Assembly: GCA_038215615.1 (NCBI GenBank)
Contig: JBBQQR010000006.1
Coordinates: forward strand, 32,001 to 96,000
DNA from: Vulcanimicrobiales bacterium
Lineage (GTDB): Bacteria; Vulcanimicrobiota; Vulcanimicrobiia; Vulcanimicrobiales; Vulcanimicrobiaceae
Length of the DNA: 64,000 nucleotides
Direction of reading: 5' to 3'
Part shown: positions 21,610-37,759 of the stretch, piece after piece
How the letters are laid out: each line of letters begins with the position of its first letter
Numbering within the stretch: position 1 is the first letter of the stretch
Position numbers and translations under genes: made by a program
The notes under the pieces: generated by a model
Databases searched by the model: none
What the model was told of the DNA's origin: nothing
The model's input: the letters and a program-made list of their open reading frames with translations, nothing else

Positions 21610-21638
21610 TAACAAGCTCCTTACAAAGTGCTTACAAG
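21610..21638. promoter_or_regulatory. Three direct heptamer repeats with 11-bp period (candidate SARP/OmpR-type binding site)
   Basis: TAACAAG-ctcc-TTACAAA-gtgc-TTACAAG in the divergent intergenic region. Confidence 0.55.
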
Positions 21639-21690
21639 AAAGGCCCCGTCCGAGGAGTCCGGGGCGGTCCGCCGTCGTAATGAGAGCGCG

Positions 21691-24561
21691 ATGGGGGCCG
21701 GTGTGAAGCCTGCCGGACTGGAGATCCGGCGCGACGCTCTGCTTGACCGGCTTGAGAGGGCCCGGCCGAAGATTTCGGCCTTGCTCGCCCCGGCAGGTTT
21801 CGGAAAATCGACGCTGGCTCGCCAGCTTCTCGCGGGCAAGACGAACGCGGCCATTTGCGACGCCAGCGAGGTTTCGGGCGAACTGGAGCTCGCGCGCCGG
21901 CTTATCCCCGCCCTGGCCGCCGAGAATCCGAAGCGTACGCAGACCCTTACCCAACGCGAGCTCATGATGGGCGACGCGGGGACGGCCGTCGCCGACCGCG
22001 TGAACCTCGCGCTGGAAGCGTGGAAGGAACCGATCGAAGACTCGACCTTCGTATTTGAAAATGCCGAACATTTGGTGCGCGATCCCGCAGCGCGTGATTT
22101 TTTTAGCCGCCTATTAGCCCAACGCCCGCCCGGTCGCGACGTCGTCATCTGTTCGCGCGAAAATCTGCGCGTGCATCTGACGAGGTTCGCGCCGCCGCAC
22201 GAGATCGTGACGTTGCGAGCCGAAGACTTGGCGCTCGATCGATCCGAGCTCGGCGACCTCTTCGAACCCTACAGTGACCGACCCGGATTCGTCGCGCGGA
22301 TCATGCAGCTCTCGCAAGGCTGGCCGATCGCGGTTTTTCTGCTCCGCCGGTTTGCCGGCGAAGGCCGGATCGACAGTTTGCTCGAGAGTTTGAATGACGT
22401 CGCGTTCGAAGAGCTGCACGACTATCTTGCGGATCAGGTGCTCGCTTCACTCGATCCGCCGCTGGTCGATGCGCTCTTCGCGTGCGCGTGCATCCCCAAC
22501 GCTCGCGTTGCCGACTTGCGTGCCGCACTCCCCAAAGAGCAAGCGGTCGTCGCGCTCCAAGAGTTTGCAAAAGGATCGCCGTTCATCACGCGTTCGGATG
22601 AGGCGTTCGTTCTGCATCCGCTGCTCAGCTCGTTGTTGACGGAGCGCCGGGGAGACGAGCGCGCGGATCTGTTGGCGCGGGTCGCCGGGGCTCATACCCA
22701 AGCCAAACGTTATCAGCGCGCCGCCGAGCTGCACTTGGCGCGGGATGATCAAGAAGCGGCGGCCGAAGTGCTGGCGCGCCACGAAGTGATCCGTGACCGC
22801 GCCCCATCGATGGAGTATGCGCGCGTCTTGGCGTCGCTCGACCATTCCCAGGTTCACCGCTACCCGCGGCTCTGGGCCGTGACCGCGATGTTGCGCATGT
22901 TCTGCATTGATTGCGAAGAACTGCTCGACGAAGCCGAATCGCTTTGGCGGACGCTCTCGCCCGAGGTAAGTGCCTCCGAGCGCGGTTACGTTTTGCTGTT
23001 CCGCATCATGCTCATGAGTTACATCGGCTTAATCGACGATGCTGAGAAGATGCTTGCGGAATTTCTATCCGGCCCGCGCGCAGCGGTTCAAAGCAAGGAC
23101 TACGTGGAAGCATACCTTGGATACGTCCTAGGCGTCATGCGATCGCGTGTGGGCCGCCTGGAACAAGCCGAGCGCGATTTAACCATTGCGCTTCCCAAAA
23201 TAGGCAGCACGGATATCGCCGGTTCGGGAGCGCTCCTGACGCTAGGCGCCGATATCGCGCGAGTGCGCGGCGAATTTGCCGTGGCGCGGCAATTTATCGA
23301 CCGCGCGCTGGAAAGCGCGCGCCGCTCGGGTCTATGGAACTTCATCGCGTTCGATTTGGCGGAAGCGTGTTTCGGAGCTTGGTTTGCCGGCGACGACGCG
23401 GCGTTCGTCCGGTACGGCATAGAACTCGACGACGTCGTCCACCGCAACGGTATTCGGTGCATCTCATTTTTTGCGGCGGCCGCACGCGGGCGGGCCGAAG
23501 AGCCGGCGGATGCCGACTTACTTAAATTCGTCGCTTGCGGGCGGATGATCGCGGCCGCCGCTTCGCACGACCGCAGAACGGCCGTTCGTCAGGCGCGCGC
23601 GGCCGTTACCGCCGCACAGCGGCTTCGCTCGCCGTTTACGCTTTGTTTGGCTTTCTTAACGCTGGCGGCTTACGACGACGCAAACACAGCGGAGCATTTT
23701 GAAAGAGCGGTTGAAGCGGCGGCGCGATGCGACTCGCCGCCATTGCACAATGCCGTTCGTGCCGTGGCCGAAGGCCGCGCCGACTACGGAATGCTCAATC
23801 CGTTCATGATGCGGCTGCAGCATGAACGAACGGGAACGGCGCCGCTGCTGGAGGTCGTACTCACGGCCGGCGTTGCGCGCGCGGCCGGAGAAGAAGTGGC
23901 GCTATCGGAACGAGAGTTTGCGCTGCTGGCGGCGCTCTCGATTCGCCGCGAGACCGTCCCGCGAGCGCGCCTAACCGATCTTCTGTGGCCGGAACTGGAT
24001 GAACGCGCGGCGCGGAATGCGCTCAGCGTTTGTCTACACCGTCTGCGGTTGCATCTGCGCATCGATCAGAGTGTCATACGCAAGAAGGACGGATACGCAC
24101 TGCACGACGACGTACGCGTCGATCTCTGGGAGATCGATCGCACGGTGACAGCCTTGCGATCGCGAACCGCGCTGGGGGACAGCGAGCGGGCACTCTTTTC
24201 CGGCATCTACGAACAGTTACGGCGCAAAAGACCCGAGCGGATGCTTCAGTGGGACTGGTTCGAACCGACTGAACGGCATATTCGCGAACTGCGCTTGGAA
24301 GTGGCGCACCGGCTTGCGGGGGATGCCCTAAGCCACGGACAAGTGCACCACGCGCTTGAGCTTGCCGAAGAAATGATCGGCTACGATCCTTGCGATGAGG
24401 CGGGCCGCGAGCTTGCAATCACCGCGCACTTGCGTCGCGGAGATCGGGCCGCCGCAATGCGCCAGTACCGGCAATACCGCGAGACGCTTCTCGCCGAATT
24501 GCAGTGCGAGCCGTCCGATGAAATCAAGGAACTCGTCGGCCTTGCGCAACACACGGCGTAG
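21691..24561 (+). CDS. MalT-like STAND ATPase regulator with C-terminal winged-helix + BTAD (SARP-like) module
   Basis: APAGFGKS P-loop, SQGWP, helical repeats, LLWPE..ARNALSVCLHRLR, DPCDE..RGDRAAAMRQY..L.AELQCEPS. Start is 21691 or 21703. Confidence 0.88.
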   Translation: MGAGVKPAGLEIRRDALLDRLERARPKISALLAPAGFGKSTLARQLLAGKTNAAICDASEVSGELELARRLIPALAAENPKRTQTLTQRELMMGDAGTAVADRVNLALEAWKEPIEDSTFVFENAEHLVRDPAARDFFSRLLAQRPPGRDVVICSRENLRVHLTRFAPPHEIVTLRAEDLALDRSELGDLFEPYSDRPGFVARIMQLSQGWPIAVFLLRRFAGEGRIDSLLESLNDVAFEELHDYLADQVLASLDPPLVDALFACACIPNARVADLRAALPKEQAVVALQEFAKGSPFITRSDEAFVLHPLLSSLLTERRGDERADLLARVAGAHTQAKRYQRAAELHLARDDQEAAAEVLARHEVIRDRAPSMEYARVLASLDHSQVHRYPRLWAVTAMLRMFCIDCEELLDEAESLWRTLSPEVSASERGYVLLFRIMLMSYIGLIDDAEKMLAEFLSGPRAAVQSKDYVEAYLGYVLGVMRSRVGRLEQAERDLTIALPKIGSTDIAGSGALLTLGADIARVRGEFAVARQFIDRALESARRSGLWNFIAFDLAEACFGAWFAGDDAAFVRYGIELDDVVHRNGIRCISFFAAAARGRAEEPADADLLKFVACGRMIAAAASHDRRTAVRQARAAVTAAQRLRSPFTLCLAFLTLAAYDDANTAEHFERAVEAAARCDSPPLHNAVRAVAEGRADYGMLNPFMMRLQHERTGTAPLLEVVLTAGVARAAGEEVALSEREFALLAALSIRRETVPRARLTDLLWPELDERAARNALSVCLHRLRLHLRIDQSVIRKKDGYALHDDVRVDLWEIDRTVTALRSRTALGDSERALFSGIYEQLRRKRPERMLQWDWFEPTERHIRELRLEVAHRLAGDALSHGQVHHALELAEEMIGYDPCDEAGRELAITAHLRRGDRAAAMRQYRQYRETLLAELQCEPSDEIKELVGLAQHTA

Positions 24562-28392: not shown

Positions 28393-28522
28393 CGTGCGCG
28401 AACCGTACTGCAATTGCTGTATGGTTCAAATGTCACGGTGCCGCTTAATATCTTTACAGAGCCTCTCCCAGGTGTGGCCGTCGTCGCGGAGGGGCTCCAA
28501 AGTTTTCGTCGTAGGTCGCGGT

Positions 28523-31159
28523 GTGACGCGGCTGGCCGACGCTGCACGACCCGCCGGACCGGCAACATTTTCGCCGATCGTTCGTCCGCGAATATCGCAG
28601 CGCATCGACGCAGCCGCTGCCGGCCGAATCGTCCTGATTGTCGCCCCTGCCGGATACGGAAAATCCCTGGCGCTGTCGCATTGGCTGGAGTGCCAGCCGC
28701 GCCGGCCCGTGCGCTTCGACGTGCAAACCGAACACGATACGCTGCTCGGGTTTGTGCGCGGAATTGCGGATGCGTTCTTCCAGTTCCCCGCGTTGCGGAA
28801 GACCGTGGCGACCGCATTTCAAAACAGCGCGTCGGCTGCGGCGCCGGGAATTGAAATGGCTCGCTGGATGGCAGCCCATCTTGAGGCATTTGAGGGTACC
28901 GTCGCCATCGACGATTTTCACCGCGCGAGCGAGGATGTCGAGGTTTCGCGGTTCGTCGCCTCTCTGATCGCCCGAACGAAGCCGCGGGTACAGTGGGTGC
29001 TGGCCACGCGCTCGACATTAGATCTGCCGGTCGCGAGTTGGCTTGCTTACGGCGAAGCGCATTTCGTCATCGGCGATCGCGATCTGCGCTTCTTAGACGA
29101 CGAAGCGCTCGAGCTTTCCCAAGGCGCAGGGCAAGTCTGGTCGCCGCGGGCGCTTCGGGGCGTGATGGACGCGACGTCGGGTTGGCCCGTCGCATTGGGG
29201 CTTGCGCTGCGAAGCACGAGCGTATTGAACGGCGCCGATCTTTCACACTCTACGCGCGAGGTACTGTTCCAATACCTGGCGGAGCAAGTCTATGCCGACC
29301 TTTCGCCGGAAGAGCGCGAGCTGTTGCATTTTGCCGCATACTTACCGTCGATCGATATCGGCGTTCTCGAAGTTGCCGGCTATCGCACCAGTGCGAGAAT
29401 GTTGGAAACAGTCCGACGAAGAGCGACATTTCTTTCGCTCGAATCCCCGGGCAGATACAAGTGCCACGATCTATTTCGCGAATTCTTGCGAAGTCAGTTC
29501 GAACTGAATGATCCGGCGGAGGCGAAATGCTCACAGGAGAAGGCGGCCTCAGCTTTGGAGCGGAGCAGCGATGTTGTCGCAGCGTTGCGCCTCTACTCGA
29601 AGCTACATGCGACACCCGCGATTTTGCGGATCCTGCGCGAGCACGGCTTTAACCTAATGGATCACTCTCACGGTGATGTTGTAGAAAGCGCGCTGCAAGC
29701 GGTGCCGCCGAACGTGCGATCTGCCGACGCCATCATCCTCGGCTTGCGCGCCCAACGTGCCGCCGATGCCGGACACTTGGAGCGCGCCGAAGCGCTGTTC
29801 AGGCGTGCGCTAGACTCCACGAAGGATACCGACGCGCGCCTAACACTTGCGGTCTCTTTCGCGGTTTTGCAAAGGAACCAATCGCGCTCCGTTAATGAGA
29901 TTCTTGGTCCCCTAGACGCATCTGCGGGGCGACTTGAGTTGCGAGCCGAGATGGCTGCCTTGCTCGCGACCGACAGCGCGCTGTCAAACGAACAAAATAG
30001 CGCTAAGGAAAGGGTCGCGGCGGCAGAGCAGTTCTGCGCGCTTATTGAATCGCAGGAGGTTCGCGCCAAGCTACTTTTGCGAATCGGAATCGCTAAAATG
30101 ACGCTGGGCTACGCTGCTGACGAAGTGCTGTCAGGATTGTCAGAGGCCGCTACCTTAGCGGAAAGAATTGGGATGCTTGGCATCGCGGCTAGAGCATATA
30201 ATGTTCTGGGCATGGCGCAGTTGTTCTGTCTAAACGCGCCGGACAAAACACTAGAATCCGAAAAGAAAGGTGCAATTGCCGCCATAAAGAGCGCCGATCG
30301 CTTTGCCCTACAAGCTTCAATTACATGCTCAATTACGGCGGAAACAAACCTTGGAAATGCGCGGGCATTAGAACCGTTGCTATCGCGCCTTAGCGACGCT
30401 GCCATATCGGACGCGGAACGGCTGCGCTCCATTAGATCTTACACGCGAGCCACGATTTGTGCTTGGAATGGGCATCTTCAAGACGCCGTCGTGCTGATGG
30501 GCGACCTAGTGTCAAATAATTACGGTTATTATGATTTCGACCAACTGTTCAACATGGCAAGCCATGCTTTATTTGCGGCGGCATGCGACGATATTTCGGC
30601 GAGCAGGAAGCTGCTGGTTGCCGCGGCCGAAAAAAGCAGGCACTGTAAAGTTCCACATGCGTACGCCAAAGCGAAATGGGGCGTTGCAACCGTGTTTTGT
30701 GCAACCGCGGAATATCTAAACGGCCGTCGACAACGCGCTGGGGAATTACTGAAAACGTTACCGATGGACTCCCCTGCGTCCGTGATGCGCCTAAGCGAGA
30801 CGCTAAATGTATTTTTACAGGGAGGTAGCGATTGGAACGATGACGTGTCGACCTTAGTAAAATCAGTCGCGGGCGGATACACCGGTGCAGCTCGGACGCT
30901 TGAGGCGTGCATGAAGTATTGGGCGGCTCTACACGGTGTGGGCGCTCGGCCAAGTGGCGCCTTGACGCCGGCTGAACGACGCGTATTGTTTGATTTAGAA
31001 GCGGGGGAAAGTCCCAAGGAAATTGCTGCTCGCACGGGGCGGAGTATTCACACGATTCGAACGTTGATTCAGCGATCTATTCAGAAGCTTGGTTGTCAGG
31101 GACGTCATGAGGCTTTGGCGATGGCTCGACGGTCCGGAGTATTCACGATAGATCTCTAG
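28523..31159 (+). CDS. MalT-like STAND ATPase-helical repeat-LuxR HTH regulator
   Basis: VRPR, APAGYGKS, IDDFH, SGWP, CHDLFREFL, C-terminal LTPAERRVL..GESPKEIA..GRSIHTIR. Start GTG 28523 inferred from the paralog. Confidence 0.9.
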   Translation: MTRLADAARPAGPATFSPIVRPRISQRIDAAAAGRIVLIVAPAGYGKSLALSHWLECQPRRPVRFDVQTEHDTLLGFVRGIADAFFQFPALRKTVATAFQNSASAAAPGIEMARWMAAHLEAFEGTVAIDDFHRASEDVEVSRFVASLIARTKPRVQWVLATRSTLDLPVASWLAYGEAHFVIGDRDLRFLDDEALELSQGAGQVWSPRALRGVMDATSGWPVALGLALRSTSVLNGADLSHSTREVLFQYLAEQVYADLSPEERELLHFAAYLPSIDIGVLEVAGYRTSARMLETVRRRATFLSLESPGRYKCHDLFREFLRSQFELNDPAEAKCSQEKAASALERSSDVVAALRLYSKLHATPAILRILREHGFNLMDHSHGDVVESALQAVPPNVRSADAIILGLRAQRAADAGHLERAEALFRRALDSTKDTDARLTLAVSFAVLQRNQSRSVNEILGPLDASAGRLELRAEMAALLATDSALSNEQNSAKERVAAAEQFCALIESQEVRAKLLLRIGIAKMTLGYAADEVLSGLSEAATLAERIGMLGIAARAYNVLGMAQLFCLNAPDKTLESEKKGAIAAIKSADRFALQASITCSITAETNLGNARALEPLLSRLSDAAISDAERLRSIRSYTRATICAWNGHLQDAVVLMGDLVSNNYGYYDFDQLFNMASHALFAAACDDISASRKLLVAAAEKSRHCKVPHAYAKAKWGVATVFCATAEYLNGRRQRAGELLKTLPMDSPASVMRLSETLNVFLQGGSDWNDDVSTLVKSVAGGYTGAARTLEACMKYWAALHGVGARPSGALTPAERRVLFDLEAGESPKEIAARTGRSIHTIRTLIQRSIQKLGCQGRHEALAMARRSGVFTIDL

Positions 31160-31207
31160 CATGTTGCATCTGGAGGAGCAGACCAGAGCACGCCTAAGGC
31201 ATCCGTA

Positions 31208-33850
31208 ATGATTAGGCCAGTCAGGGCAGATGGCCACGTGGAGCGAGGCGGGATCTTTACTCCGGTTGTTCGGCCGCGAGTCATCGACAGAATTGCGTCC
31301 GCGGCCTCTCAGAGGGTTGTTCTGGTTGTTGCTCCCGCCGGCTACGGTAAATCACTTGCCGTCGGCCAATACCTGGACACCTCGAGTGAGCCCTACGTGC
31401 GTTTTGATGCTAAGCCTGAACACGCGCGTCTGTTAGGATTCCTTCGTGGTTTTGCCGATGCGCTGTCGACAGTTACTGTGGATGCGCGGCGAACGCTCAA
31501 GGCCGCCTACGAAGCAAGTTGCCCGTCAAGAACGCAGGGCGCGGATCTAGCGATGTGGATGCATTCGCACATCAAGAGCTATTCGGGGTTAATTGTAATC
31601 GATGATTTGCATGTTACTGAGGCAGATTGTGAAGTAACAGAGTTTTTATCCACCTTGGTCGCTCTCTCGCGTGGACGTACGAGATGGCTGCTCGCGTCAA
31701 GATCTACACTAGATTTACCGGTTGGTTCGTGGCTGGCATACGGCGACATGGATCTGACAATCGATGAGCATGATCTGCGATTCACGCTGGAAGAGGCGCG
31801 ACAGGCTGGGAAGGCCGCGCGCGTCACCGTCCGGGATGAAGAGCTTGAACAGCTATTGCTGATGACGCAAGGCTGGCCAACCGCGTTAAGTTTCGCTTTG
31901 CGTTCATCGACGAGATCCGTAGATCTCAAGAATATCCAGGCAAACACGTTGGAAATGGTGTACCGTTATCTCGCCGAGCAAGTATATCGGGGCCTAAATA
32001 GTGAAGAGCGAGATTTACTGCACTTTATCTCGTACCTCGACGAAATAGACATTCCTGTGCTTCGCAAAGCCGGCTATACGCACGCCAAGCGCATTATCGA
32101 GAGTCTCCGAGATCGGGTTGCGTTTATATATTCGGATAAGCCATCGATTTATGGTTGCCACGATTTGTTTCGTGGATTCCTTCGGCATCAGCTCGAGTTA
32201 AGTGGGGACGCAGCCGTTCTTGCCACTCAATTGAAGGCGGCGCGAGCGCTTGAAGCGGTTAACAATGTCCCGGCCGCGCTTCGAATATTCGCGCAAGCGC
32301 TTTCTGCAGATGACGTCTTGCGGTTGCTCGAAACCCATGGTTTGGAACTCGCGGAGCAGGGTCACGGCGATGTAGTACAAGTTGTCCTCACAATCGTACC
32401 TCATGACATACGTGCCAAAAATCCCTACGTGTTGGGTATTCGCGGAATCGTGATGGGAGATGCCGGTAGGCTTGATCGTGCCGAATCACTCCTGCAGCGA
32501 GCCATCGCAGGCGCTAAAGACGTAGCTTTAAGAGCAACGCTCGCCATAAAACTAGCTTTAATTCTCGCGAACCAGATGAAAGAAACAGCTAGCGTCCTGG
32601 AGCCTCTAAAGTCCGAACCACTTTCGAAGAATTTGCGTAGCGAGGTTCTCAGTCTTCTCGCGATTGCGTATGCGTACGCCGCTCGGCCAGAACAGGCGGA
32701 AGAGGCGGCACGTGAGGCGGAGCTTTTGGCGTCTGAGCTAGACAATGACCAAGATCGCGCGAAGGTGTTTCACCGTATCGCAATTGCGGAAGCTCGACTG
32801 GGCTTGCCTTTTGAGAAAGTGCTTGCTATGCAGGAACGAGCGGCTAGCCTTGCTTCAGAGCAGGGTTTGTTTGGTTTGGCAGGGCGTTGTTTTTCATCGT
32901 TGGCTAGCATCGCGCTTTTCTACGAAGGCGATATTACAAGAGAAATTTGGTATGCCCAGCAGGCATCTACGGCGTCGATGAAAGCCGGCGATCGAATAAA
33001 TTTGCAGACGGCCCTACTGCAGTTAATTGATATCGAGGGTCGGCGCGGCGATGCCGAGCGAATTCTGACGCTGGAAAAGCAGCTCGCCGCCGTAGCTACG
33101 ACAGACGCAAACCGGCTTGTGTACGTGGTTCCGGTTCGCGCTCTATTTGCCGCATGGCAGGGAAAGTTTGATGAAGCGCACCGTCTTATGGCGACTGTCG
33201 CCGGCAATGCCCGCTTCTTTGATTTCGATCGCGCCCTCAATGCTGCGATCGATGCCGTACTTTTATTGGCCGACGGTCGGCGCGAGGAGGCTCTCGCCGC
33301 CACTTCTCAGGCGCTGGCGGAGATCGAAAAGGGAGTATCGCCTTTGCCGCACGCAAGGCGTCAGAACGAAATAGCAAAACTGTTCTGTTGTATAGTAGAA
33401 AGCCTCGCAGGTCGTCAGTTAAATGCTCAGCGGCTTCTACGTGTTAAGCCACTGACTCACGGCCCGGCGGTTCAGGCTTTTCGAAATGCTGCAGCGGCCG
33501 TCTTGCGGATGAATAAAACCGATTGTGTAGACACGCTGACGGAACACTTCGAGGGTATCTCACTCGCTGGCTACGGCGGCTTCGCGCGTGTTCTGGGACT
33601 GGCAATAGAGAAGATTCTGAACTCTGGTGCGAGTGACGAGGAATTGACTCAGACCCAGATCCAGATCTTGGAGGCTTTAGCTTTGGGCCGGACCCCTAAA
33701 GAAATCGCCCGCGAGAGCGAGCGGAGCCTTTACACTATCCAAACACATATCCAGAACATCATAAAACGGCTCGGGTGCAGCGGTAGGCACGAAGCGCTTG
33801 TAATTGCTCGTGCGCGCGGTCTACTGAACGACGCCGGCGCACCATCCTGA
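31208..33850 (+). CDS. MalT-like STAND ATPase-helical repeat-LuxR HTH regulator (tandem paralog)
   Basis: VRPR, APAGYGKS, IDDLH, QGWP, CHDLFRGFL, C-terminal LTQTQIQIL..GRTPKEIA..RSLYTIQTH. Confidence 0.92.
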   Translation: MIRPVRADGHVERGGIFTPVVRPRVIDRIASAASQRVVLVVAPAGYGKSLAVGQYLDTSSEPYVRFDAKPEHARLLGFLRGFADALSTVTVDARRTLKAAYEASCPSRTQGADLAMWMHSHIKSYSGLIVIDDLHVTEADCEVTEFLSTLVALSRGRTRWLLASRSTLDLPVGSWLAYGDMDLTIDEHDLRFTLEEARQAGKAARVTVRDEELEQLLLMTQGWPTALSFALRSSTRSVDLKNIQANTLEMVYRYLAEQVYRGLNSEERDLLHFISYLDEIDIPVLRKAGYTHAKRIIESLRDRVAFIYSDKPSIYGCHDLFRGFLRHQLELSGDAAVLATQLKAARALEAVNNVPAALRIFAQALSADDVLRLLETHGLELAEQGHGDVVQVVLTIVPHDIRAKNPYVLGIRGIVMGDAGRLDRAESLLQRAIAGAKDVALRATLAIKLALILANQMKETASVLEPLKSEPLSKNLRSEVLSLLAIAYAYAARPEQAEEAAREAELLASELDNDQDRAKVFHRIAIAEARLGLPFEKVLAMQERAASLASEQGLFGLAGRCFSSLASIALFYEGDITREIWYAQQASTASMKAGDRINLQTALLQLIDIEGRRGDAERILTLEKQLAAVATTDANRLVYVVPVRALFAAWQGKFDEAHRLMATVAGNARFFDFDRALNAAIDAVLLLADGRREEALAATSQALAEIEKGVSPLPHARRQNEIAKLFCCIVESLAGRQLNAQRLLRVKPLTHGPAVQAFRNAAAAVLRMNKTDCVDTLTEHFEGISLAGYGGFARVLGLAIEKILNSGASDEELTQTQIQILEALALGRTPKEIARESERSLYTIQTHIQNIIKRLGCSGRHEALVIARARGLLNDAGAPS

Positions 33851-33945
33851 CGGCCAACGGCATACTGATCTTTAATTAGAGACCTAAAGCGCAGTCCGGG
33901 CTATTCTAAGAGCTAATCACACGAGTTTCTCAAGGAGCATTTGAA

Positions 33946-34011
33946 GTGGATTCTCTTGTCTTAGCTATAGAACTTATTTTTGTCGGTACCGTCCCCCCGA
34001 CAATCGGATAG
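33946..34011 (+). CDS. Putative 21-aa peptide MDSLVLAIELIFVGTVPPTIG
   Basis: AAGGAG (33932-37), 8 nt, GTG; hydrophobic N-part and Pro/Gly C-part; stop TAG at 34009-11. Confidence 0.6.
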   Translation: MDSLVLAIELIFVGTVPPTIG

Positions 34012-34083
34012 TCGGGCACCACCCTGACCGTATATACGCGAATTAGTTCGCTCGGATCGGACCTATCGCTGCTTACAAAGGCC

Positions 34084-34992
34084 GTGATCGAGCAGCTCCA
34101 AGATCCGACGTTGGTGGGAGATCCGGGCCTGGAAAGGTCGATTGAGGCGCTCCTCGATCGGCTTTGCATGTCGGTCAACCTCTCGAAACCCGTCGGTTTG
34201 AGCAATTGGGCGGTGCGCGAGGGGAACCGGTTGGGGACGGCACGCGCGAGCGAACTCGCGTCAGCTGCCCTTCATGTCGTGGCCGGCGAGGCCGCCCGTT
34301 TCGATCTCGACCACGGGCGGCTCTTGGCGTTCATGGAGGTGTTGCGCTCCGAGATCGTCTCGGAGTTAGCGTGGCACAAAAATGGAAAGCCTGAAGAACC
34401 GGCCGAATACTCCGAGAGCACTCGCGCGTTATTGGCAATGTTAGGCGAACGGGACTCGGCGACGTGCTGCCATTCCCGCGCAACGGGCGAATGGGCGCGC
34501 CGTCTGTGCGCCGCGATGGCAATTCTGCCTGAGAAAGCGGAATTGATAAAACTTTGCGCAGTATTGCACGACATCGGCAAAATTTCCACGCCCGAGGCCA
34601 TTCTTTTCAAACGCGGCACGTTTACGGAAGACGAGTGGGCGATCATGCGCGACCATTCGGCCGCCGGACAGCGCGTTCTGGATCAAATACCGACCCTGGC
34701 AAAATGCGCCCTGATCGTCAGAGCGCATCACGAGCGCTGGGACGGCACCGGCTATCCCGACGGCTTAGCGGGCGAAAACATTCCGTTTGAAGCGCGCGTC
34801 GTCGCCGTGGCGGACGCCTTTCATGCGATGATTAGTGAGCGTCCGTACCGCAAGGCTATACCTCCGCGTCAGGCCCTGGAGATATTGGAGGCGGGCCGCG
34901 GCACACAATGGGATGCCGGCGTTGTCGACGCGATGCTAGGCTTATTTCGAAAGTCACGTGAGCGCCACGAGGTCCGCGCTTCGAGCGCATAG
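34084..34992 (+). CDS. HD-GYP domain protein (cyclic-dinucleotide phosphodiesterase family) with unknown N-terminal domain
   Basis: HSRAT, LHDIGK, HHERWDGTGYPDGL, VADAFHAM..RPYR, GTQWD. Confidence 0.93.
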   Translation: MIEQLQDPTLVGDPGLERSIEALLDRLCMSVNLSKPVGLSNWAVREGNRLGTARASELASAALHVVAGEAARFDLDHGRLLAFMEVLRSEIVSELAWHKNGKPEEPAEYSESTRALLAMLGERDSATCCHSRATGEWARRLCAAMAILPEKAELIKLCAVLHDIGKISTPEAILFKRGTFTEDEWAIMRDHSAAGQRVLDQIPTLAKCALIVRAHHERWDGTGYPDGLAGENIPFEARVVAVADAFHAMISERPYRKAIPPRQALEILEAGRGTQWDAGVVDAMLGLFRKSRERHEVRASSA

Positions 34993-35017
34993 GCACCGCT
35001 ATTCCGGGTAGTGGGCT

Positions 35018-35050
35018 GGGCGCACCGAAAGGTGCGCCCTTCATTTTTTT
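35018..35050 (+). terminator. Intrinsic terminator
   Basis: GGGCGCACC-gaaa-GGTGCGCCC followed by TTCATTTTTTT. Confidence 0.9.
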
Positions 35051-35090
35051 GTGCCAACCAGTTGGCACTCAGATGCCCCATACTCGCACC
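35051..35090 (+). promoter_or_regulatory. Palindrome GTGCCA-N6-TGGCAC plus -10 box CATACT, leaderless start
   Basis: GTGCCA-accagt-TGGCAC-N10-CATACT-cgcacc-ATG(35091). Confidence 0.7.
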
Positions 35091-35540
35091 ATGGAGTACA
35101 TGATCGGCGCGGGAGCTATCCTGGAGGCGGGCGAGGGCGCCAAGGTTACGGCGGCAATGCTGCATGCCCGCGTCGACCCCATTCTAGCTCGCTCGGTTAA
35201 AGCTGCGGCGGTAGATTTCGACGGGAACTCGGCTGCCGCGCTGCGCCGGCTCCTGGTGTTGGTGCCCGGGTGGAACGCTGGGAGGTTCCGCTCGCGCGTG
35301 ACCCATCCGCTCATCGAGCGCGGGACATGCTCGCTGGCCGACGTGCTCTCCATGCTCGCCGCTGCCGCTCGGGCGCCGGAAATTCACTTGTTCGCACATT
35401 GGTTTCCCGACGATGCGACGTGCGCTGCCCTAAAGCAGCGCGGGATCGGATTGGTGGTGCATCCTTTGGAAGCCATTGAATCGGCCGCGGTCGTCGCGGG
35501 CCAGCGGCATACCCGGTGGAAGACCCGCCGGGCAGCCTAG
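35091..35540 (+). CDS. Hypothetical protein
   Basis: 149-aa ORF with a leaderless-type promoter directly upstream; no recognised family. Confidence 0.7.
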   Translation: MEYMIGAGAILEAGEGAKVTAAMLHARVDPILARSVKAAAVDFDGNSAAALRRLLVLVPGWNAGRFRSRVTHPLIERGTCSLADVLSMLAAAARAPEIHLFAHWFPDDATCAALKQRGIGLVVHPLEAIESAAVVAGQRHTRWKTRRAA

Positions 35541-36268: not shown

Positions 36269-37759
36269 GTGGTGCGGAGTTCGCTGGCCTCCCGCTTGGC
36301 GGGTCTGTACACGTTGCTTCTGGGAATTACGGTATTTCTGGTTATCGTCGCATCTTCAATCGCCCTGATTTATGAACTGACCGGTTTTAGCCGCGACATC
36401 ATCATCGCCAAGCACGACGAAGCGCGTACCTTGGCCGAGCAATATCACATGCAAGGCGTGAGCCTCAGTAAAGCTGCGCCCGACATTGCGCGCGAACTGA
36501 GCGGCATCGGGCTTCAGGTCGCGGTCTTCGACGAAAAAGGAAAATATTTGGCGGGCGATCGGACGTTGCGGCCGCCGCTGCTCACGCGGGTCCTGAACGG
36601 GCGTATCGAAATCGCGCAGCCGCCGGGATCGCGGGTCGGCGTTTTCGGGCCTTTTCCGCACCCGTTTCCGGCGGGGCGGACAATGCTGACGATCCGCCGC
36701 GGAACCGACTTCAGCGTCCCGGCGCGCGGCCCGGACTTCCGGTACTTAATCGCGGTCGATGGCGGCTTTGTGGCGTTCATGCCGTCGCCCTGGATCATTT
36801 TTGCAAATCTTGGGCCGTATTGGCTGATTATCGTGTCCATCGGCATCGCTGCCATTTTACTCTCCTGGTTTATCGGCCGCGTCTTTTCGCGTCACGCCCT
36901 AGCCCCGCTGACCGAAGTCACCGGTTCGTTGCAGGCGCTGGCGCTTGGTGATTACACGCAGCGCCGGTTCATCGCGGCAGGCGGAGACGAGATCGCGCAG
37001 TTGACGCAAGCCTACAACGACGCCGCTGCCAGCGTGGCCAGCGCGATGGACGAACGCAAAAATACCGAAGCGCGGATGCGCCAGTTTGTCGCCGACGCAG
37101 GTCACGAGCTGCGAACGCCGCTGACCGTTATCGCGGGCTACATAGACGTTCTACGCCGCGGCGCGATTGAAGAACCGAAAGTCGCCAAGCAGATCTTGGC
37201 GACGATGGCGCTTGAAAAAGAGCACATGCGCGGTTTGATCGATCGTCTGATGCGGTTGGCGCGCATGGATGCGGAAGCGCCTCCGGCACCGATGCCAATC
37301 GACGTACGCGAATTTCTTAGCGATCAGTCCGATGCGGCGCGCAGGTTCGACGAACAGCGCCACATCGACTATAGCGTCGAAGGCGTCAAGGAGATTTTCG
37401 CGGACCGGGCCGAGTTGGGCGAAGCGTTTTGGAATATTTTAGAAAATGCGCTGAAGTATGCGCCGGGGGCGCCGGTGCACTTGCGCGCGGAAGCCGACGG
37501 TGAAGAAGTCGTCTTGACCGTCAGCGACCAGGGACCCGGTATGACCGAGGGGGAACGGCTGCACGCCTTTGAGCGGTTCTATCGCGGCGACGCTCGCGGC
37601 GAGATGCCGGGCACCGGACTTGGCCTGGCGATTGCCAAACGGGCGGTCGACCGCGCCGGGGGCACGATTCGCTTAGATAGCGCGCCCGGGCACGGGACGA
37701 CCGTGACCATCCGCCTTCCTCAGGTATTTCCCAAGGGTGAAGTGGTACAAGAATCTTGA
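36269..37759 (+). CDS. HAMP-domain sensor histidine kinase
   Basis: Two TM segments, HAMP, DAGHELRTPL, NILENALKY, DQGPG, FERFYRG, GTGLGL. Confidence 0.96.
   Translation: MVRSSLASRLAGLYTLLLGITVFLVIVASSIALIYELTGFSRDIIIAKHDEARTLAEQYHMQGVSLSKAAPDIARELSGIGLQVAVFDEKGKYLAGDRTLRPPLLTRVLNGRIEIAQPPGSRVGVFGPFPHPFPAGRTMLTIRRGTDFSVPARGPDFRYLIAVDGGFVAFMPSPWIIFANLGPYWLIIVSIGIAAILLSWFIGRVFSRHALAPLTEVTGSLQALALGDYTQRRFIAAGGDEIAQLTQAYNDAAASVASAMDERKNTEARMRQFVADAGHELRTPLTVIAGYIDVLRRGAIEEPKVAKQILATMALEKEHMRGLIDRLMRLARMDAEAPPAPMPIDVREFLSDQSDAARRFDEQRHIDYSVEGVKEIFADRAELGEAFWNILENALKYAPGAPVHLRAEADGEEVVLTVSDQGPGMTEGERLHAFERFYRGDARGEMPGTGLGLAIAKRAVDRAGGTIRLDSAPGHGTTVTIRLPQVFPKGEVVQES

Follow-up and report, generated by a model that had tools for sequence, protein, structure and literature searches.

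In this work we looked at a 64,000-nt stretch of DNA (the window; contig JBBQQR010000006.1, positions 32,001 to 96,000) from a Vulcanimicrobiales bacterium, and at a cassette in it in which a regulator gene is followed by a very small peptide gene and an HD-GYP phosphodiesterase gene; all coordinates below are positions within the window, on the forward strand. The reading that we prefer, with moderate confidence, is that the cassette may encode a circuit for peptide signalling with a MalT-type STAND activator at its centre. This activator, here called R2 (31208..33850), would sense a processed form of the 21 amino acid (aa) peptide (33946..34011) and drive expression of the peptide gene and of the HD-GYP gene (34024..34992). 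Based on the comparison of related loci, R2, an operator, a promoter, the peptide gene and the HD-GYP gene are shown to be one conserved unit.

The comparison is based on an R2 profile search at E 1e-40, in which two candidates were scored per genome and whose tallies include six unpublished genomes. Within the family, 271 of 296 genomes gave a match, as did 4 of 5 genomes of the sister family; the other sampled families gave no R2 profile match at this threshold. From 150 listed matches we took 80 further regions that are spread across genera, skipping unpublished genomes. The resulting R2 orthologue set contains 118 distinct loci with at least 900 bits and with 300 nt of downstream DNA present; one of these, L017 from the unpublished genome G030, is counted among the 118 and was omitted from the trees.

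A preliminary description of this stretch had pointed to an AT-rich gap behind R2 and to a 21-aa open reading frame (ORF) within it, opened by AAGGAG, 8 nt and GTG, with a hydrophobic N-part and a Pro/Gly tail, and all of this is borne out. The gap has a G+C content of 45-48% compared with 60% across the window, the Shine-Dalgarno (SD) sequence AAGGAG is located at 33932..33937, and the GTG at 33946 opens 21 codons that end in a TAG stop (34009-34011). The N-part is hydrophobic and uncharged, and approximately the last seven residues (33988-34008) form a Pro/Gly core. It had also been suggested to look for such a small ORF (sORF) downstream of R2 homologs, where it indeed recurs. Using a rule that needs no SD (start 30-170 nt past the R2 stop, 15-50 aa, hydrophobic N-part), it was found at 102 of the 118 R2 orthologues vs 33 of 1,099 long-ORF ends of the source genome, a control that includes spurious frames, and 6% of shuffles. 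When both an SD and a Pro tail are present the count is 95 of 118 R2 loci vs 1 of 1,099 control ends, and most orthologues carry an SD-like word. The sORF rule is passed by 0 of 41 distant STAND-LuxR genes and by 0 of nine genes of the paralogous R1 type (see below). The 16 R2 loci that fail it consist of one triple-repeat peptide (L035), two that are weaker but present, one frameshifted, one degenerate and 11 cassette-less loci, in which the operator box, the peptide and the HD-GYP gene are all gone.

Across the 102 loci the peptide is 20-45 aa long, with Pro at position -5 in 80 peptides, a lipobox-like Cys in 11 and a Lys or Arg anywhere in only one. The stop codons interchange freely (45 TAG, 44 TAA, 13 TGA). 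The pooled dN/dS of the peptide in four clades is 0.19 (its own genus), 0.10, 0.37 and 0.48, whereas shifted frames give ratios of 0.85-4. By these measures the peptide ORF is real, and four of the five clades show it to be under purifying selection. Judged by its distribution, the peptide belongs with R2 and not with a tandem pair of regulators.

Between R2 and the peptide gene there are two elements that were absent from the preliminary description. The first is an 18-bp palindrome (33862..33879; family motif CTA(C/G)T-N8-A(C/G)TAG), centred at about -43.5, which is the proposed R2 site; the second is a -10 element, TATTCT (33902..33907), 22 bp past it. The palindrome was found in 90 of the 102 regions upstream of a peptide vs 2.5% of shuffles, and TAnnnT follows 22/23 bp past the box in 89 of 90 box loci, compared with 11 of 2,767 at other offsets. 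The combination of box and -10 element occurs once in the source genome. The box is present at 84 of 85 loci with an HD-GYP gene, at 11 of 22 that have the peptide without HD-GYP and at none of the 11 cassette-less loci. Position 849 of R2 lies in the recognition helix of the LuxR-type helix-turn-helix (HTH); where it is a Lys, the box bases are C5/G14 (12 of 12 loci), while with other residues they are so in 0 of 77. This position ranks top of 851 columns for both box bases; residue and bases show four changes each on the tree, and the three independent pairs all agree. Since residue 849 predicts box positions 5 and 14, R2 most likely binds the palindrome, the centre of which we take to be at the position of a class II activator. 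No wider regulon was found in the source genome, where other box matches lie in or between coding genes, lack a -10 element and are not above shuffles. Of six distal box matches read in genus g39, two show the complete promoter spacing, with no clear ORF behind them. Distal copies of operator and -10 element were seen in two g39 genomes (L344:1501-1620 and L343:1501-1620), and ~60 nt past the L344 copy there is a hairpin with a U-rich tail, so that the target may be a small RNA.

R2 is an 880-aa protein with a STAND NOD module at its N-terminus (nucleotide-binding domain, helical domain and winged-helix domain (WHD), followed by an arm), ~9 TPR helix pairs and a LuxR HTH at its C-terminus. The Walker A, Walker B, sensor-I Arg, GxP and WHD His motifs are located at 42, 130, 163, 221 and 317 and are invariant or almost so in groups A1/A2; a TPR_2 match at 479-507 (E 3.6e-5) is under the cut-off. 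The predicted R2 structure (pLDDT 83) gave 6MFV and 8BOB, the TPR-sensor STAND proteins PH0952 and MalT, as its top Foldseek matches. The predicted sensor aligns with MalT domain III (Z 21.6, root mean square deviation 4.4, 328 residues) about as well as with Rap and NprR peptide complexes and with eukaryotic TPR proteins (Z 19.7-22.9), and therefore the fold does not name the ligand. Identity among R2 orthologues is 54-60% in the NOD and HTH, compared with 26-37% in the sensor.

It had been suggested that co-variation between the peptide tail and the receptor repeats should be looked for, and such a pattern is seen. In a TPR superhelix, helix A lines the concave face. Having first explored 14 close pairs, we used all 32 disjoint sister pairs of the R2 tree; helices A and B were assigned from predicted helices, with the register of the sub-cut-off TPR_2 match at 479-507. 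With a changed core (n=23) the nine A helices take a 0.220 share of the substitutions vs 0.136 with an identical core (n=9; p 1e-4), whereas the B helices are flat (0.207 vs 0.208) and the arm likewise shows no difference. All nine A helices rise with core change (x1.1 to x3.0), most at 555-573, 439-455 and 514-530, and an equal contrast appears in 0.4% of 48,620 alternative nine-helix sets. The 20 pairs that were not inspected beforehand give the same direction (3 v 17, p 0.013). The A-helix share in the 32 pairs is not predicted by a change of leader or by total distance, and the all-pairs correlation of the core with receptor domains is weak (partial rho 0.12-0.20). We regard this co-variation as the strongest indirect evidence that the peptide may be the R2 ligand.

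By looking at the peptide variants it can be seen that the core is the conserved unit, as it survives leader swaps and duplication. The L035 peptide repeats an 8-residue core three times and has no long hydrophobic segment. In genome G162 the hydrophobic pro-peptide is replaced by a 63-aa precursor (L312:8022-8210) with an acidic leader and two identical AVTPPDPF cores, at the locus where G148, G161 and G201 keep an ordinary peptide that is unlinked from R2. This precursor presumably resembles double-glycine leaders; together with the other peptides, it matches no Pfam or NCBIfam family. In the sister family (4 of 4 genomes) the same box and spacing are followed by a lipoprotein-signal pro-peptide that ends in a PP-N core. 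A paralogous STAND-LuxR clade, found in other genomes of the genus and not in the source genome, is followed by lipoproteins with 3-5 tandem Pro/Gly (xxLPG) repeats.

Related forms were also observed elsewhere. G310 (L309) carries a remnant of the two-core acidic-leader type, and in L299 (G161) a second hydrophobic sORF with a PPVG-like tail lies ~330-210 nt upstream of the stop of the unlinked peptide. The lipoprotein loci of the paralogous clade are L321:8089-9345, L322:8323-9564, L323:2395-3639, L325, L327 and L331. Behind distant receptors (L317:3621-3881 and L318:7646-7873 regions, L124 after 8592) there are short lipoprotein-signal ORFs and then HD-GYP genes, and one of these short ORFs has a duplicated 9-residue word. 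In genus g25 (L289, L285, L041) a 493-aa STAND-LuxR-like gene on the opposite strand faces the main cassette; it is accompanied by a hydrophobic Pro-tailed sORF of its own and by a second HD-GYP gene.

A mechanism that fits these comparisons is that the pro-peptide would be made, would exit the cytoplasm and would be trimmed to its C-terminal 6-8 residue Pro/Gly core. The core would come back in via Opp/Dpp-type uptake and bind the concave TPR groove and the arm of R2. As in MalT, this binding would lift the autoinhibition of R2, to be followed by ADP/ATP exchange and oligomerisation; the LuxR HTH would then bind the palindrome at ~-43.5 and switch on the peptide/HD-GYP transcript, a positive feedback. 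The HD-GYP output would lower cyclic di-GMP (c-di-GMP), as in a sessile-to-motile type of switch, and core and groove would diverge together into pherotypes, with R1 as an orphan or eavesdropping paralogue. As for the sign in this scheme, we favour activation of R2 by the peptide, and inhibition would be the less likely case. The source genome encodes LpxC and Omp85, which indicates a diderm host, as well as nine family-5 peptide-binding proteins and an M50 protease; a C39 exporter domain was found in three of five genomes tested and not in the source genome.

Several observations weigh against such a circuit. No Lys or Arg is found in the first six residues of any of the 102 peptides, although a hydrophobic stretch is present, and without a basic n-region Sec export is doubtful. 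The dN/dS analysis that had been proposed for the peptide gave coding-type selection in four clades, but in clade g25 the value is 0.87, no better than the shifted-frame control. The R2 sensor fold is equally near to the sugar-binding domain of MalT (Z 21.6) and to Rap and NprR (Z 21.8 and 19.9). The idea of the A helices arose after 12 of the 32 pairs had been looked at; pairs with an identical core are few and two clades supply most of them, two exceptions lie at 0.13-0.15, and the A/B assignment depends on predicted helices and on one TPR match below its cut-off. For the pairing of HTH and box, a sign test gives p 0.25, as the pairs are too few for significance. Ten genomes have no peptide beside R2; five of these speak for the circuit, as three carry an intact copy elsewhere, one the two-core form and one a remnant, but the remaining five gave no match to a peptide pattern that recovered 7 of 8 known positives. 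Conversely, four g39 genomes gave no receptor match, and in three of them (G119, G150 and G298; 94-97% complete) the peptide gene is still intact at its native locus while R2 was not found, the native site of R2 (L315, L316, L301) being taken by unrelated, defence-like genes. Such receptor-less peptide genes may reflect recent R2 loss, signal-only cells or a second target. Finally, G003 has R1 but neither R2 nor a matching peptide.

One alternative explanation, which we consider unlikely, is that the peptide binds R2 inside the producing cell, at the inner membrane or in the cytoplasm, and tethers, inhibits or times it, as MalK and MalY restrain MalT; the result would be a feedback loop confined to the single cell, with no cell-cell signal. 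Such binding would explain the groove co-variation equally well and fits the absent charged n-region, and MalT itself is described as being under protein inhibitors (PMC10427625). Yet the lipoprotein-signal versions of the sister family, the multi-core precursors without a membrane segment and the fast diversification of the core among close relatives are all better fitted by a released, strain-specific signal.

Another hypothesis, to which we give a low probability, is that some other protein (the histidine kinase encoded downstream at 36269-37759, the HD-GYP protein or another receptor) has the peptide as its output or as a small modulator at the membrane, and that R2 senses an unrelated small molecule, in the way that MalT senses maltotriose. 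This would suit the three R2-less genomes, in which the intact peptide gene still lies ahead of two-component genes, the five genomes where R2 is kept and conserved with no peptide detected, and the tie of the sensor fold with MalT domain III. It leaves unexplained, however, why core changes track the A helices of R2 and not the B helices or the leader. Moreover, the peptide persists without HD-GYP (22 of 33 loci), without two-component neighbours (g25 loci) and without the operator (11 of the 22 loci lacking HD-GYP), and thus neither of them simply has the peptide as its output.

The HD-GYP gene and the terminator that had been noted behind the peptide are also found here. The protein is an HD_5 match with the HD, HHE, GYP, distal Asp and RPY motifs present, and its model matches 4MCW (Z 23.1), 4R8Z and 5Z7C. 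Among 79 full-length orthologues HD is kept in 72, HHE in 78 and GYP in 78; it is described that intact motifs usually, not always, mean activity (PMC4212101). The globin-like helical N-terminal domain tentatively resembles non-haem sensor globins (Z 12.4), and an atlas search with it gave no usable match. The source genome has this single HD_5 match beside 10 GGDEF and 6 EAL matches, and the named records nearest to the protein are from Vulcanimicrobiota/Eremiobacterota. An intrinsic terminator (35018..35049; 9-bp stem with a U-tract) would end the peptide/HD-GYP transcript, although terminator counts overall are no higher than in shuffles (12 v 8.2). The gene is next in 85 of 118 R2 loci and is absent in genus g39. 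Hence the suggestion of a peptide/STAND-LuxR system tied to cyclic-dinucleotide turnover holds in part: a conserved sORF, selection and tail/sensor co-variation speak for the system, but the link with HD-GYP is usual and not obligate. One weak match in viral contigs is all that was found for a phage association.

The start of the HD-GYP gene is probably near CTG 34024. The GTG at 34084 chosen by the ORF finder is unconserved in the genus, whereas CTG/ATT/TTG lies 4-6 codons past the peptide stop in seven of eight genus members, and the extra N-terminal residues fold well in the model; other genera use ATG with an SD. A read-through fusion of peptide and HD-GYP was rejected, as frames 0/1/2 occur in 32/20/28 of 80 loci. 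A reading in which the sORF acts only in cis on the HD-GYP gene, as an attenuator or translational coupler, and the peptide is inert, is very improbable: the weak start close behind the peptide stop would fit it, and coupling may contribute, but leader folding shows no structure (z -0.38), the leader has no Rfam match, selection acts at the amino-acid level, and the peptide is kept in trans and without HD-GYP.

The gene upstream of R2, R1 (28523..31159, with the start set by the R2 alignment; the longest ORF begins at 28394), encodes a second STAND-TPR-LuxR protein. As had been described, the two are MalT-like paralogues: they are 37% identical, both C-termini match the GerE/LuxR HTH, and with 122-124 bits (R2 124) they stay far below the cut-off of 537 of the NCBIfam MalT equivalog (PRK04841). 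They are the only two such genes in the 2.2-Mb genome by tblastn. The tandem arrangement, in contrast, did not hold up as a defining feature of the cassette. R1 lies directly upstream of R2 in 8 of the 108 loci with enough flank, neither an own peptide nor an own box was found for it, and R1-type proteins form a separate old clade, sister to R2. In this comparison R1 is an accessory paralogue.

Further upstream is a third STAND regulator, R0 (ATPase-TPR-winged HTH-BTAD; 21628-24561), which together with an amidase-like gene and often a VPS10/BNR gene is syntenic with the cassette at many loci. R0 was rejected as a substitute receptor in the R2-less genomes, since only one of the three has a relative, 30% identical. 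Downstream, the gene at 35049-35540 is conserved, matches no Pfam or NCBIfam family, is always ahead of a response regulator/kinase pair and is preceded by a conserved GCCACCCAG(T/G)TGGCACT element.

If the peptide circuit is true, a STAND transcription factor would gain a peptide ligand that is named and made by the cell itself, together with an operator and a reporter output. The documented inducer of the STAND activator MalT is maltotriose (PMC10427625, PMC6468293); given a defined peptide ligand, activation of the NOD-like receptor (NLR) type could be tested directly by means of synthetic 7-mers. The circuit would also mean cell-cell signalling in a widespread and barely cultured soil phylum, in view of R2-like genes in most genomes of the family, and ~100 natural receptor/peptide/operator sets could be used as a specificity code. 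Search tools that limit receptors to 500 aa are blind to systems of the R2 type.

The closest likeness in logic is to the RRNPP(A) systems of Bacillota (Rgg/SHP, PlcR/PapR, NprR/NprX, Rap/Phr, AimR/AimP), where a cytoplasmic TPR receptor is encoded beside a tiny pro-peptide with a C-terminal core. The published criteria are a pro-peptide of 10-100 aa and a receptor of 250-500 aa that has no ATPase module (PMC10075063), the peptide is described as binding the concave TPR face (PMC9765709), and orphan receptors, unlinked peptides and duplicated or tandem cores are reported there as well (PMC9765709, PMC11343458). The cassette agrees in pro-peptide length (21 aa), in gene adjacency and in TPR repeats (sub-cut-off TPR_2; Rap/NprR alignment Z 19.7-21.8). 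It disagrees in the receptor, as R2 has 880 residues, begins with a STAND ATPase and ends with a LuxR HTH, compared with 250-500 aa and an N-terminal effector. It also differs by a diderm non-Bacillota host, a missing basic n-region and an HD-GYP enzyme as output; peptide quorum sensing with cytoplasmic receptors has been presented as a trait of Bacillota (PMC10075063, PMC9765709). With regard to an export signal of the Sec or PptAB type, the peptides have the hydrophobic stretch, the basic n-region is missing in 102 of 102, and a clear lipoprotein signal is seen in the sister family.

With MalT of E. coli, PH0952 and LAL regulators, R2 shares the domain order, the NOD motifs, the TPR/SUPR sensor and the LuxR HTH. 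MalT, for its part, has maltotriose as inducer, bound by sensor and arm (PMC10427625, PMC6468293), and folded inhibitor proteins as partners. The proposed R2 operator is a symmetric 18-bp palindrome; as in LuxR/LuxI autoinduction, a LuxR-type HTH would act on a palindrome near -43 that drives the signal gene. The lux box is itself a palindrome near -43 ahead of a signal gene, whereas MalT boxes are asymmetric. Unlike in LuxR/LuxI, the signal would be a ribosomal peptide, the sensor an ATPase-gated TPR superhelix, and there is no autoinducer synthase. The HD-GYP enzyme shares the HD, HHE, GYP and RPY motifs with PmGH (4MCW), PA4781 (4R8Z) and V-cGAP3 (5Z7C) and differs by its globin-like N-terminal domain; its putative substrate is c-di-GMP or cyclic GMP-AMP. 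In full-text searches of the open-access literature we found no description of a peptide-induced STAND activator or of such a cassette in this phylum. We see about an even chance that this is a third architecture of peptide quorum sensing, next to the two-component and RRNPP systems, in which an NLR-like STAND ATPase factor of a diderm phylum would read secreted strain-specific peptides, autoinduce and reset c-di-GMP, with its family drawing cores from hydrophobic mini-peptides, lipoprotein-signal peptides, multi-core precursors and lipoprotein-tethered repeats. As far as sequences can tell, the cassette probably places RRNPP-like logic on an unrelated receptor, MalT-type STAND but not MalT, and is probably a new architecture of bacterial peptide signalling.

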